DNA from: Candidatus Omnitrophota bacterium
Lineage (GTDB): Bacteria > Omnitrophota > Gorgyraeia > JAHIPI01
Assembly (NCBI GenBank): GCA_016931215.1
Contig: JAFGFD010000090.1
Coordinates: 1 to 43,253, forward strand
Direction of reading: 5' to 3'
DNA length: 43,253 nt
Below are positions 9,449 to 31,214 of the stretch, piece after piece. How positions within the stretch are numbered: position 1 is the stretch's first letter; every line of letters starts with the position of its first letter. The notes below the pieces were generated by a model, which did no database searches, had not been told where the DNA came from, and worked only from the letters and a program-made list of their open reading frames with translations. The position numbers and the translations under genes are program-made.

Positions 9449-9524
9449 GGGCCGCTAGCTCATCTGGCAGAGCACCGCCCTTTTAAGGCGGGTGTAGAAG
9501 GTTCGAGTCCTTCGCGGCTCACCA
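9449..9524 (+). tRNA. tRNA-Lys (anticodon UUU)
   Basis: Hand-folded cloverleaf: acceptor gggccgc/gcggctc (one G-U), D arm gctc/gagc, anticodon arm ccgcc-cTTTTaa-ggcgg, T arm gaagg-ttcgagt-ccttc, discriminator A, encoded CCA. Confidence 0.95.
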
Positions 9525-9706
9525 GCATTTTACTTTGTTGTGAGACGCCGGCTTGCTCGAAGTGAGGTTTCGCCGACGAGTAGGAGGAAAAGCGCATACT
9601 TCCTCGAATTGCAGAAGATAGCGACAGAAACCGAGTGGCCGACCCGAGTATCTTGGCGAACGAAGTGAGCCGAACGAGGGCGCCGAGTCCTTCGCGGCTC
9701 ACCAGC
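9525..9706 (+). repeat. tRNA-3'-flank element, copy K: ~157-nt non-coding insert plus an exact 23-nt copy of the tRNA-Lys 3' end
   Basis: 9684-9706 equals 9504-9526 (cgagtccttcgcggctcaccagc). The interior is homologous to 22061-22213. There is no credible ORF. Confidence 0.6.
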
Positions 9707-9769
9707 TATTTAGCCTATAGTCGATGGACTATGGGCAAAGGGTAGACCATATACATAAATATATAGCGC

Positions 9770-21436: not shown

Positions 21437-21687
21437 ATTTATCTATGACATTAAACTATCTTGACAAGTTCTCTGTAACTGTTCTGCGGAGTAAGCTTTT
21501 TACTTTACTATTCTATTATATATGGATGTCAAAGGCAACGAGTTTTAATTTTGACGATTTTATATAAAAAAGTTTAAGACGGGCGCTTTCATGAAGTAAA
21601 AAATCTTGATATCCGATGAGCCGATATAAATGTCATGTGCTGTCAAAATAACCGTTATAACGGAAAAATAAGGAGAAACTTACTTCT

Positions 21688-21715
21688 TTACAACATTAAA
21701 AAAATCTGGTATTAT
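21688..21715 (+). promoter_or_regulatory. Sigma70-type promoter candidate for tRNA-Ser(UGA)
   Basis: TTACAA, 16 nt, TATTAT, with an extended -10 (tggtattat). Lies ~90 nt upstream of the tRNA. Confidence 0.45.
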
Positions 21716-21804: not shown

Positions 21805-21895
21805 GGAGGAGTGGCTGAGCGGTTGAAAGCGGCGGTCTTGAAAACCGTTAGACTCTTTACGGGTCTCAGGGGTTCGAATCCTCTCTCCTCCGCCA
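21805..21895 (+). tRNA. tRNA-Ser (anticodon UGA)
   Basis: Acceptor ggaggag/ctcctcc, anticodon arm gcggt-cTTGAaa-accgt, long variable arm, T arm agggg-ttcgaat-cctct, discriminator G, encoded CCA. Confidence 0.95.
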
Positions 21896-22060
21896 GGATT
21901 TAAAATTGCAGCGGAGTTTTAGGATTCGAAGCGAGCGAACGCGCGACGGGCAGGAGCGATGAGGCCGTAAGTCGAAGACCGACCGCAGTGAGCGAGGGGA
22001 GGTTACGCAAGCGAGCTCCGCGAGCTGTAGTAACCGAATCCTCTCTCCTCCGCCAGGATT
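21896..22060 (+). repeat. tRNA-3'-flank element, copy S-A (divergent), ending in an exact 26-nt copy of the tRNA-Ser 3' end
   Basis: 22035-22060 equals 21875-21900 (cgaatcctctctcctccgccaggatt). The 5' half shares ttcgaa(g/t)(c/t)gag..cg(c)cgac...(t/c)aggag with copies S-B and K. Confidence 0.55.
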
Positions 22061-22232
22061 ATTACAAGATGCGGAGATGCTGAATTCGAATTGAGCCGGC
22101 GCCGACAAATAGGAGGAAAAGCGCGTACTTCTAAGTAAAACCCCAGATAGCGACAGCCGGCGATTGGCCGACCCGAACACCCTGGGGCCGAAGTTTAGGC
22201 CGGGGTGAGGGCGCCGAATCCTCTCCCCACTT
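22061..22232 (+). repeat. tRNA-3'-flank element, copy S-B, ending in a decayed copy of the tRNA-Ser 3' end
   Basis: Collinear with copy K (cgccgac..taggaggaaaagcgc.tacttc, agatagcgacag, ggccgacccga, gagggcgcc). The terminal ccgaatcctctc (22214-22225) matches the tRNA T-loop/T-stem and then diverges. The period from the previous copy is 180 nt, as at tRNA-Lys. Confidence 0.6.
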
Positions 22233-22291
22233 TATATTTGGTGGTTTTTATAATTATATATTAAAAGAAAGCGGAAGACTAAGGGAAAAAA

Positions 22292-24614: not shown

Positions 24615-24704
24615 GGAGAGGTGCGAGAGCGGTTGAATCGACCTGCTTGGAGAGCAGGCGTAGCCGCAAGGCTACCCAGGGTTCGAATCCCTGCCTCTCC
24701 GCCA
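24615..24704 (+). tRNA. tRNA-Ser (anticodon GGA)
   Basis: Acceptor ggagagg/cctctcc, anticodon arm cctgc-tTGGAga-gcagg, long variable arm (gtagcc gcaa ggctac), T arm caggg-ttcgaat-ccctg, encoded CCA. Confidence 0.95.
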
Positions 24705-24849
24705 GTTGGGAAATGTCTTTGTTGGCTCGCCCTCTGCGAGGGTTCGCCAGCCGATTTTAAGCGCAAATTGGAATTTTTTATCTTTCAAAATGAAGTTCGA
24801 GCCGATATTTTTTCAGGTTCTTTGGCAGTTTTTCAATCCGAAAGGGTCG

Positions 24850-24896
24850 CTTCCGCAGGCGGGCGGAAGGGGGGTTTGGGGGGAATTCCGCCCGCC
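24850..24896 (+). promoter_or_regulatory. GC-rich, mutually exclusive hairpins (terminator or switch candidate)
   Basis: cttccgc (24850-56) can pair with gcggaag (24863-69). Alternatively ggcgggcggaa (24858-68) can pair with ttccgcccgcc (24886-96), enclosing a G6-T3-G6 loop. Confidence 0.35.
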
Positions 24897-24992
24897 CTAC
24901 AAATTTTGGGCGAAATCTGTTCGAATTTTTTGAAAGCACACCGCCATCCTTTTCGAGAATATACAACTCGAACCTCATCAATCAGTTAATCC

Positions 24993-25022
24993 TTGTAGGC
25001 ATCCGCGATAGAATGGTATAAT
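24993..25022 (+). promoter_or_regulatory. Sigma70-type promoter candidate abutting the helicase ATG
   Basis: TTGTAG, 18 nt, TATAAT, with an extended -10 (tggtataat). Only 6 nt separate the -10 from the ATG at 25029, and no SD is present. Confidence 0.45.
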
Positions 25023-25028
25023 ATTCGC

Positions 25029-30643: not shown

Positions 30644-30906
30644 TCAAGCACTTTTTAAGTTAGAACACAGCTCTTTGTTAATATAGTTTTCATGGTACTG
30701 TTTAGGCGTCATATTGCCAAGCGACTGGTGCGGATAGTCCGTGTTATACGCCTCGATCCATTTGTTTAAAGCGACTTCAAAGTCGAACGGGTTATCCCAT
30801 TCATAAGGCCATACCAAGTCCTCTTTGATGGTGCGCATGACACGTTCGGTATCCGAATTGCCTTTGGGATTTGACCATGTGGTAAATATCTGCTTAATAC
30901 CAAAAA
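30644..30906 (-). pseudogene. Remnant of an IS3/IS481-type DDE transposase (C-terminal part of the rve integrase core only)
   Basis: ...NPKGNSDTERVMRTIKEDLVW....F..ALNKWIEAYNTDYPHQSLGNMTPKQY matches the end of rve-domain transposases. The upstream part of the 154-aa ORF has no transposase character. No N-terminal HTH domain or inverted repeats were seen. Confidence 0.65.
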
Positions 30907-31214
30907 GCGAGGTGATATCAGAAGCCTTGTTTTCATTCCTGAAGGAGCAAAATCTAATAAAAGCTGTAAAATAAGTCAGTCTTTTATACAGCTCGCAGAT
31001 TAAAACCCTCAATATTAGTCCGCCCGTTAGATAATATAGATCAGACCTATAAGCGTAAATTTGACTTGTTTTTTTATGTAACGCTATATGTAATAAGCGG
31101 TTACGCAAATTAATCCATACTTTTCTTGTAACCGTTAAGATTTTAATGTATACTATATTTAAGAAGGGCAGAGACTAAAGAGTTCTGTCCATTTTTTATT
31201 ATAAGGGGTATAAC

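Follow-up and report, generated by a model that had tools for sequence, protein, structure and literature searches.

Short structured non-coding elements behind tRNA genes of Omnitrophota duplicate the ends of their host tRNAs and may be miniature integrative elements

Islands and prophages, as Williams is said to have described in 2002, integrate at the 3' end of tRNA genes by means of tyrosine integrases, with the T-loop as a sublocation. That integrating elements partially duplicate tRNA genes is known and widespread (10.1101/2022.07.05.498093). The DNA analysed here, a window of 43,253 nt from a Candidatus Omnitrophota bacterium (contig JAFGFD010000090.1), contains GC-rich non-coding segments directly 3' of tRNA-Lys(TTT) and of tRNA-Ser(TGA). 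On sequence comparison, the Lys segment and two Ser segments are members of one family of structured non-coding elements located directly behind tRNAs, and this family is widespread in Omnitrophota and apparently undescribed. Like the islands that target tRNAs, the elements appear to insert behind an intact tRNA, are bounded by a direct repeat from the T-loop to or past the tRNA end, accrete in tandem with older, degenerate tRNA fragments farther out, and in two related loci (L044 and L062) bring their own terminator. Unlike islands, which measure kilobases, they span 140-290 bp, contain neither an integrase nor an open reading frame (ORF), have a conserved, structured core and an inverted copy of the target, and occur as one family at more than 20 tRNAs with host-specific ends. 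We interpret them, with moderate confidence, as miniature non-autonomous integrative elements of tRNA genes, 140-290 nt long, non-coding and structured. Coordinates refer to the window, and L-numbers (L024 and so on) denote related loci from genomes and metagenomes.

Comparison of the copies revealed that 25 distinct complete elements (141-288 nt) end with an exact copy of at least 18 nt of the host tRNA 3' end. This terminal copy spans the last 21 nt of the tRNA, from C56 of the T-loop to the CCA, and is usually perfect, while directly before C56 the elements read GCGC, GTAAC or GTAGG and the tRNA reads GGTT. In the window, where ARAGORN located tRNA-Lys(TTT) at 9449-9524, tRNA-Ser(TGA) at 21805-21895 and tRNA-Ser(GGA) at 24615-24704, the end of the Lys segment (9684-9706; cgagtccttcgcggctcacca followed by gc) is an exact repeat of 9504-9526, that is, a direct repeat of 21-23 nt. 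The interval 9504-9706, which had been singled out in the initial annotation, coincides exactly with the two copies of this repeat and the sequence they enclose; the repeat itself, the size of the family, the arrays and the truncated remnants were not part of that annotation. The duplication varies between 21 and ~90 nt, with a fixed left boundary and a variable right edge, and differences between the tRNAs of related loci recur in their terminal copies (at N73 for L030 and L040, and at two positions for L027 and L033). In L049, a tRNA-Val gene without CCA is followed by a terminal copy that also lacks the CCA, and the repeat extends 12 nt into the trailer, indicating that the gene and not the mature tRNA is copied; this rules out copying of mature tRNA by reverse transcription or by template switching at the CCA. 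The Lys copy and its surroundings comprise the following features:

9449-9524, forward strand: host tRNA-Lys(TTT), CCA encoded (ARAGORN; Rfam tRNA model, 61 bits).
9525-9704, forward strand: Lys element, 180 nt, delimited by sequence comparison.
9504-9526, forward strand: X0, first copy of the direct repeat, tRNA C56-A76 plus GC, repeated downstream with 0 mismatches.
9525-9539, forward strand: A/T-rich spacer of 15 nt, gcattttactttgtt; the family consensus starts G-N-A-T-T.
9540-9548, forward strand: P0', gtgagacgc, complement of tRNA positions 74-66 with one mismatch (the "+16" segment).
9549-9554, forward strand: non-complementary middle of the inverted copy, with the family motif W-G-C-H, from comparison of left ends.
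9555-9561, forward strand: P1', gctcgaa, complement of the T-loop side and part of helix 1 of the consensus fold; a weak arm in the Lys copy.
9555-9558 with 9685-9688, forward strand: helix 1 as predicted in the Lys copy from the consensus fold.
9557-9586, forward strand: conserved 5' block TCGAAnnGAGnnnnCGC(n)CGACnnnnAGGAG, used as the family search pattern.
9560-9567 and 9662-9669: GAAGTGAG(C) motif, a family-wide feature.
9566-9571, forward strand: 5' strand of helix 2, ggtttc, with compensatory changes against its partner at 9627-9632.
9581-9592, forward strand: invariant purine-rich, Shine-Dalgarno-like motif TAGGAGGAAAAG, predicted to be unpaired.
9593-9623, forward strand: helix 3, cgc (9593-9595) with gcg (9621-9623), invariant and hence uninformative.
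9627-9632, forward strand: 3' strand of helix 2, gaaacc.
9637-9645, forward strand: 5' strand of helix 4, ggccgaccc, partner at 9678-9684 (ggg.cgcc).
9648-9657, forward strand: 5' strand of helix 5, partner at 9669-9675 (gccgaac), with compensatory changes in 4 of 7 pairs.
9665-9702, forward strand: minihelix, 9665-9672 with 9695-9702 and 9676-9680 with 9689-9693, a copy-specific alternative fold that overlaps helices 4 and 5.
9684-9706, forward strand: X1, second copy of the direct repeat, tRNA C56-A76 plus GC, and predicted 3' strand of the closing stem.
9714-9735, forward strand: hairpin cctatagtc-gat-ggactatggg directly 3' of the Lys element.

The left end of the elements consists of four parts, namely a spacer, a complement of the acceptor end (in about half of the copies), a non-complementary W-G-C-H stretch that is only loosely conserved, and a complement of the T-loop and T-stem, which covers tRNA positions 54-63 and ends in a conserved TCGAA. 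In each of the 20 copies with an acceptor-end complement, the spacer measures 14-16 nt. From this anatomy it follows that the entire 3' part of the tRNA is present as a degenerate inverted copy, of which the "+16" segment forms one arm. Two functional readings of the left end were rejected. A promoter in the spacer was not found in a scan of the Lys locus, and a -35 in the T-loop with a -10 in the spacer, proposed by eye, was inconsistent across copies; T-box-like sensing is contradicted by the target of the complement, which is acceptor-stem bases that are buried in the folded tRNA and not C75-A76. In addition, long-type copies contain GAAGTGAG(C) as a direct repeat, once just behind the T-loop arm and once just ahead of the terminal tRNA copy. 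GCGCCGA is likewise found in the 5' block and again where the tRNA copy begins, and it is at this motif that several stubs break off.

The initial annotation had reported that gtgagacgc (9540-9548) starts 16 nt after the CCA and complements gcggctcac (9514-9522, tRNA positions 66-74) with one mismatch, and that gcggag (21911-21916 and 22071-22076), each time 16 nt after a CCA, complements ctccgc (positions 69-74); both observations were correct. The frequency of such complements was then determined for 41 distinct element/host pairs from the window and the related loci, counting perfect complements of at least 5 nt whose pairing runs in register inward from C74 and whose first base lies at +15 to +17. 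They were present in 20 of the 41 cognate pairs, and were rare both among non-cognate combinations (11 of 1564) and among element-free tRNAs of the same loci (1 of ~33), so that complements at this fixed offset are not a common chance product. The distribution of the scores was bimodal (0-2 or 5-7), and the hosts with an acceptor complement were tRNA-Lys TTT/CTT, Ser, Gly CCC/GCC, Ala, Arg CCT, Leu CAA/TAG, Tyr, Pro and Trp. The compensatory-like covariation of the +16 segment with the host acceptor end, claimed from three copies, was thus upheld across many tRNA identities; a matched complement at further tRNAs was found well above chance, but only in about half of the family, the remaining half having different spacers and the T-loop complement alone. 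The alternative description in the same annotation, an inverted-repeat part of a site tailored to its target, also fits well: the +16 segment is the acceptor-side arm, and it is accompanied by a covarying T-loop arm and a non-complementary middle. In this second arm, the five variable bases matched cognate tRNA positions 59-63 with a mean of 4.06 of 5 (13 of 31 perfect), compared with 2.78 of 5 for non-cognate tRNAs (12 of 862 perfect). The +15/+16 rule also holds in two tRNA-Lys element types with unrelated cores, one (L077) consisting of 2.9 identical 107-nt units in tandem, with GTGAGCC at +15 and a terminal copy of 11 nt, the other with GTGAGC at +16 and a 15-nt terminal copy (L075).

Additional members of the family were recovered with the degenerate pattern TCGAAnnGAGnnnnCGC(n)CGACnnnnAGGAG, which fits all three window copies and gave 0 matches in shuffles of the window. 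A scan of GTDB genomes returned 6 loci, of which 5 were true, from two Omnitrophota metagenome-assembled genomes (MAGs) and one MAG labelled Planctomycetia, and a scan of metagenomes returned 43 loci, ~39 of them true; four pattern loci (L025, L045, L047 and L060) were set aside as coding DNA without a tRNA or the remaining element. Profiles searched with nhmmer added copies within known loci that the pattern had missed, including hosts with a TTCAA T-loop, whose complement accordingly reads TTGAA. These searches brought ~45 further copies from Omnitrophota genomes and metagenomes, or ~50 in total. The hosts represent at least 23 anticodons and 15 amino acids: Lys TTT/CTT; Ser TGA; Gly TCC/CCC/GCC; Ala CGC/GGC/TGC; Arg CCT/TCG/TCT; Val TAC/CAC/GAC; Tyr; Thr; Pro TGG/GGG; Leu CAA/TAG; Trp; Gln; and Met (as a stub only). 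Copies are dense, with 3 in the 43-kb window and 2-3 in several short contigs, and in some contigs ~1/3 to 1/2 of the tRNA genes are occupied. Covariance models of Rfam 15, among them those of T-box, YrlA, tmRNA, group I introns and ribozymes, at gathering and at relaxed thresholds (E up to 10), left the elements unmatched and recognized the tRNAs alone; weak matches to sX4 and plastid models overlie the tRNA itself. Among 50,697 phage records, BLAST matched neither the Lys nor the Ser elements, and among 72,556 plasmid records it did not match the Lys element; a scan of viral contigs with TAGGAGGAAAAGCGC gave 23 matches, all by chance inside unrelated DNA. Full-text literature searches retrieved no description of such elements, which does not in itself prove its absence. 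A small protein on the minus strand (ORFs 9460-9702 and 21866-22180) was rejected as an explanation, given that the copies differ by 1-nt indels and variable insertions, which disrupt the frame.

The cores fall into two types. The long core reads ...TGGCCGACCCGA...GAGGGCGCC and the short core ...GGTTAC-hairpin-GTAACC or GTAGTAGGC, each followed by the tRNA copy. For 11 long-type copies, RNAalifold predicted five helices. Helix 1 closes the structure by pairing the T-loop-side arm with the terminal tRNA copy at its start. Covariation is seen in helix 2 (GGUUUC:GAAACC, GCCGGC:GCCGGC and GCUCCGC:GCGGAGC), which is broken in the GCGAGC subtype; helix 3 is short and invariant; helix 4 changes from GGC..CCC:GGG..GCC to GUC:GAC in L043 and L052; and helix 5 has the form YYUGGC:GCCGRR. 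In an independent count, 96.1% of the cells of the family fold were paired and 13 of 28 pairs were changed on both sides; 0 of 500 shuffles were as good, and sliding the partners reduced pairing to 33-37%. In the short type, the 3' helix occurs as GGUUAC:GUAACC, GGCUAC:GUAGCC, GGCGAC:GUCGCC and, with a G.U pair, GGCUAC:GUGGCC, and the first hairpin also shows compensatory changes. Between L036 and L039, which have near-identical cores, the difference is itself compensatory (GGCUAC:GUAGCC versus GGUUAC:GUAACC).

Indications of insertion and turnover came from arrays, remnants and comparisons among relatives. The tRNA-Ser of the window is followed in tandem by two unlike copies, a short type and then a long type, as follows:

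21687-21715, forward strand: promoter-like site upstream of tRNA-Ser, a consensus match only.
21805-21895, forward strand: host tRNA-Ser(TGA), with the first repeat copy (X0) at 21875-21895.
21896-22055, forward strand: Ser element 1, short type, 160 nt, in tandem with Ser element 2; spacer 21896-21910, P0' gcggag 21911-21916, P1' aggattcgaa 21921-21930 and terminal copy 22035-22055.
22056-22229, forward strand: Ser element 2, long type, 174 nt; spacer 22056-22070, P0' gcggag 22071-22076, P1' gaattcgaa 22082-22090 and degenerate terminal copy cgaatcctctcccca 22215-22229.
22227-22254, forward strand: terminator-like hairpin and T run directly 3' of the Ser array.

The terminal copy of Ser element 1 is an exact repeat of the tRNA-Ser end and that of Ser element 2 a shortened one, so that the repeats read perfect, perfect and degenerate outward from the tRNA. 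Ser element 2 and the Lys element have identical blocks in common (TAGGAGGAAAAGCGCRTACTTC, AGATAGCGACAG, TGGCCGACCCGA and GAGGGCGCCGA), and Ser element 1 is a shorter relative of both. Partial second units, consisting of a spacer, an inverted copy and TCGAAG.GAGCGAGCGCC, stand behind the terminal copy in L036, L038, L041, L043, L064, L067, L070 and L039 and break off at variable points, while solo stubs or truncated units were found behind tRNA-Met in L049 and behind tRNAs in L035 and L051. In L066, a fossil 3' fragment with a different, presumably older tRNA-Tyr end lies 130 nt downstream. The syntenic tsf-pyrH-frr-tRNA-Lys-archease-rtcB-serS locus occurs in five states across relatives: a long type in the window; a short type plus a stub in L038; a third type of 120 nt in L075; 2.9 units of a fourth, 107-nt type in L077; and no element in L080, where a hairpin directly follows the CCA. 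These genomes are too diverged for a base-exact comparison of filled and empty sites. The same tRNA-Gly with the same spacer carries a long core in L026 and a short core in L032. Conversely, cores 96-98% identical bear wholly different host-specific ends at an intron-containing tRNA and at tRNAs for Lys, Pro, Trp and Gly.

The position of the elements relative to transcription signals was also compared. A promoter-like site precedes tRNA-Ser, and the terminator-like hairpin with its T run (22227-22254) comes straight after the array. A strong hairpin follows the terminal copy within a few bases at 9714-9735 of the window and in L024, L033, L042, L044, L057, L062 and L066. As the element is placed between the tRNA and its former terminator, co-transcription with the tRNA is likely; in L044 and L062, a separate terminator comes with the tRNA-end copy on the side of the element. 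The hairpin at 9714-9735 is probably the native hairpin that formerly stood behind tRNA-Lys. A near-identical hairpin follows the element in L053, and instead of a simple terminator it may therefore represent another small repeat. In L070 (reverse strand, ~1650-1600), the truncated second unit ends ...CAGGAG, 4 nt before the ATG of secE, and the Shine-Dalgarno-like AGGAG of the element appears to act as the ribosome-binding site of this gene.

Taken as an integrative element, each copy would bring the last 21 nt of its host tRNA, from C56 of the T-loop to the CCA, and would enter by recombination across this tRNA-end sequence, so that the tRNA is restored while its 3' end is left a second time at the far side. 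The insert would come to lie between the tRNA and its former hairpin or terminator and would most likely be transcribed with the tRNA. A single strand, either RNA or DNA during recombination, is predicted to fold into the five helices, with a closing stem whose 3' strand would be the terminal tRNA-end copy and whose 5' strand would be the imperfect inverted copy. Both the +16 and T-loop arms would then covary with the host because one strand of this stem is the host tRNA 3' end. The two-armed hairpin around an unpaired centre is a probable cis-acting site for a trans-encoded enzyme, as suggested by this two-arm geometry together with the constant C74 register.

Such a site can be compared with described mobile DNA. 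As in integron attC sites and the CTX attP(+) site, used by XerCD, two boxes predicted to pair (the acceptor and T-loop arms, in 20 of 41 copies) would flank an unpaired centre, the cap is variable and sometimes branched, the sequence is free as long as pairing is kept, and arrays grow at one fixed end; in contrast to these sites, the family junctions have no R-box GTTRRRY and no dif-like arms, no intI or xer gene is nearby, and the target itself is duplicated in one of the hairpin strands. Miniature inverted-repeat transposable elements (MITEs) and the REPINs moved by RAYT transposases are likewise small and multi-copy, lie between genes, form hairpins and encode neither a protein nor, therefore, their own enzyme. 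Their terminal repeats are constant, however, whereas the inverted arms of the present family change with the site; their target duplications are short and fixed, whereas those found here are 21 nt or more with a variable right edge; and, unlike theirs, insertion here is strictly at tRNA 3' ends.

Several results weigh against the interpretation as integrative elements. No integrase, transposase or reverse transcriptase was found in the window, save for a fragment with an rve_3 domain (30644-31108), and none recurred among the 25 most frequent PHROG families listed for 144 flanking ORFs. A classical integrase is specific for one tRNA, and ordinary integration does not account for cores 96-98% identical that carry different host-specific ends. 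The insertion boundaries are not proven, because no strictly orthologous pair of filled and empty sites was found; no excised form was seen either. Folding energies of single copies were no better than those of shuffles (z = -0.2 to -0.9). The reverse strand gave an equal consensus energy, and G.U pairs did not single out one strand; selection for pairing is evident, but with both strands folding equally RNA is not distinguished from single-stranded DNA. Finally, the T-loop arm of the Lys copy is weak (4 bp), and the minihelix fold of this copy is predicted to be ~15 kcal/mol more stable than the family fold.

Among the alternatives, the likeliest is a non-mobile, stable structured small RNA cut from a tRNA-element precursor, which we still consider rather unlikely. 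Its paired ends would leave a 2-nt CA overhang, as those of many stable RNAs do, the tRNA-end copy would provide a tRNA-like 3' maturation, and selection and gene conversion would keep the copies alike, with ends co-evolving with the host tRNA. The compensatory changes in five helices, the invariance of unpaired motifs such as TAGGAGGAAAAG, the location between tRNA and terminator, and the terminal copies that follow their hosts (L030 versus L040; L027 versus L033) all agree with a stable RNA, as do a few G.U pairs on the tRNA-sense strand (GGCUAC:GUGGCC in L030/L040 and one in the T-loop arm of L033). However, it leaves the exact 21-nt repeat, the mixed arrays, the stubs and fossils and the differing types at one tRNA unexplained, and neither the absence of an Rfam family match, nor the consensus folding without strand asymmetry, nor the terminator between tRNA and element in L044/L062 is in its favour. 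Like tmRNA, the bacterial Y RNA YrlA and viral tRNA-like structures, the elements have paired 5' and 3' ends and tRNA acceptor sequence ending in CCA, and YrlA adjoins archease-rtcB in Salmonella, as the Lys copy does here; unlike them, the elements received no call from ARAGORN or Rfam, have the discriminator and C74 paired, and contain no T-loop. A general link to archease-RtcB was discarded, given that the Ser copies and other loci have no rtcB neighbour.

A second alternative, which we regard as doubtful, is a guide-bearing mobile element, in which two host-specific segments (6-9 nt to positions 74-66, and 3-5 nt plus TCGAA to the T-loop) would base-pair with the tRNA gene at its 3' end. 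The RNA or folded single-stranded DNA would direct a trans-encoded recombinase or nuclease, and the terminal copy would be a long target duplication, a logic that may be comparable to that of IS110 bridge RNAs, TnpB guide RNAs and Cas1-type repeat duplication. Resemblance to the omega RNA of TnpB/IscB and the IS110 bridge RNA extends to a conserved, structured core of ~100-150 nt directly followed by ~20 locus-specific nt that match flanking or target DNA, and to target-complementary segments inside a scaffold. Host-specific bases are indeed interleaved with family-conserved ones (W-G-C-H and TCGAA), as guides are within a scaffold; near-identical cores have different specific ends; neither the C74 register nor the +15 to +17 spacing changes between the window type and the core families of L075 and L077, the three being unrelated; and the left boundary is fixed with a variable right boundary. 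On the other hand, no tnpB, iscB or IS110 recombinase gene is adjacent and no associated protein is known, IS200/605 ends are missing, the locus-specific end duplicates that of the tRNA and is not unique flank, and no Rfam match was found. Moreover, the acceptor-end segment is absent from half of the copies, a route for rewriting the guide is without evidence, and co-evolution of the closing stem accounts for the covariation without a guide function. It is with the same doubt that we mention the extended form of this idea, programmable protein-less elements that a host or helper enzyme, recognizing their folded hairpin, would copy or paste in, duplicating the tRNA end. Pairing of the kind made by a group I intron P1 or its guide was rejected, as the intron model matches the introns of host tRNAs and not the elements. 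Both the stable RNA and the guide are compatible with the integrative elements that we favour, and a mobile element may well encode a functional RNA.

The initial annotation had also proposed that the 3' end of the Lys element is a tRNA minihelix of the kind recognized by RNase P, RNase Z or CCA-adding enzymes, which in the light of the family is very unlikely. The pairings it listed were correct (gtgagccg, 9665-9672, with cggctcac, 9695-9702; gaggg, 9676-9680, with ccttc, 9689-9693, around an 8-nt loop), and they are predicted in both the minimum free energy (MFE) and centroid structures of the Lys copy, with -60.0 kcal/mol compared to -45.4 kcal/mol for the forced family fold. Units of the L077 type also have a complement just upstream of the terminal copy, and the T-arm-like helix is 87% paired across copies. 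A functional, conserved tRNA mimic, by contrast, was not borne out across the family. In 18 long-type copies, pairing upstream of the terminal copy was the same with the cognate acceptor (4.33 nt) as with non-cognate acceptors (4.35 nt), with energies of the upstream segment of -9.9 and -9.3 kcal/mol, respectively, and the Lys copy was the single extreme. On the 11-copy alignment, the minihelix was 67% paired with no excess of compensatory change, and 82 of 500 shuffles matched it. Its partners, GAGCCGRR and GAGGGCGCC, are kept whatever the host tRNA and form the covarying helices 5 and 4. Recognition by enzymes of the RNase P, RNase Z or CCA-adding type is further disfavoured by N73 and C74, which are paired and leave no free NCCA, and by the loop (cgccgagt), which has 8 nt without T54-T55 in place of a 7-nt T-loop; neither ARAGORN nor the Rfam tRNA model made a call on the minihelix. 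We conclude that it is an accident of tRNA-Lys complementing a conserved motif and at most a copy-specific alternative fold.

Debris, that is, the att-site ends of deleted tRNA-integrated islands, or chance repeats, is a highly improbable source even though tRNA fragments from integrating elements are common (10.1101/2022.07.05.498093), since it is already contradicted by ~50 copies from many samples and more than 20 tRNAs, all of which have the same size and the same conserved, covarying architecture, and chance is excluded statistically.

If mobile, these elements would be by far the smallest known users of tRNA 3'-end integration, with ~150-200 bp and no protein, and one core would be fitted to more than 20 tRNA targets by short complementary segments, which bears on how nucleic acid, instead of protein, can specify a target. 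If the copies act as RNAs, they would constitute a new structured-RNA family of large size, produced along with tRNAs in the Omnitrophota, a little-known phylum whose bacteria are very small and possibly depend on hosts. Were the guide reading true, it would describe a new nucleic-acid-guided integration specialised on tRNA genes and abundant across a phylum. Either way, a sizeable share of the tRNA genes seen here is occupied and tRNA-end fragments are made, and gene finders and island-detection tools that rely on tRNA-end fragments will misread these elements.

Other insertions were observed at the same place. An inverted-repeat element (AAAACGTTCGG ... CCGAACGTT) stands directly after a tRNA CCA or after terminal copies of the family in L026 (~1726 on), L028 (~3460 on), L027 (~1263 downward), L054 (after 517), L024 (after 6644) and L066 (after 2440). 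A MITE-like element of ~97 nt (TCTACTTCGC ... GCGAAGTAGA) lies at +1 after tRNA-Gly in L024 (6977-7075), where it sets this tRNA ~100 nt apart from the family element, and it was also found behind the terminal copy in L032 (~4933) and L054 (~1453). In these genomes, insertions in general seem to favour the base right after the CCA. In the relatives of the tRNA-Lys locus, the array of L077 (2193-2480; Ga0272442_10000052) behind tRNA-Lys(TTT) ends 20 nt before the archease start codon, and the third element type of L075 (2362-2490, ~120 nt) lies behind an intron-containing tRNA-Lys.

Several host tRNAs contain group I introns. Such introns occupy the anticodon loops at L042 (1164-1400), L075 (2030-2267), L062 (3044-3263) and L080 (~1050-1340), and ARAGORN misses these Omnitrophota tRNAs because the intron splits the anticodon loop. 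A LAGLIDADG ORF adjoins tRNA-Lys in L075/L076, a GIY-YIG ORF is present in L038 (7330-7570), and the RtcB of L081 contains an intein.

The remaining genes of the window are a Gram-negative housekeeping set, with rpsB, tsf, pyrH, frr, archease-rtcB-serS, lpxB and glycosyltransferases, and the nearest relatives of the archease carry Omnitrophota names. The third tRNA, tRNA-Ser(GGA), is followed by ~320 nt of non-coding DNA (24705-25028) with GC-rich hairpins (ggctcgccctctgcgagggttcgccagcc; ccgcaggcgggcgg...ccgcccgcc); this segment has no repeat of the tRNA end and is not a member of the family. On the minus strand, a 154-aa ORF (30644-31108) represents a transposase fragment, as its IS3-type integrase core (rve_3) is reduced to the C-terminal part.

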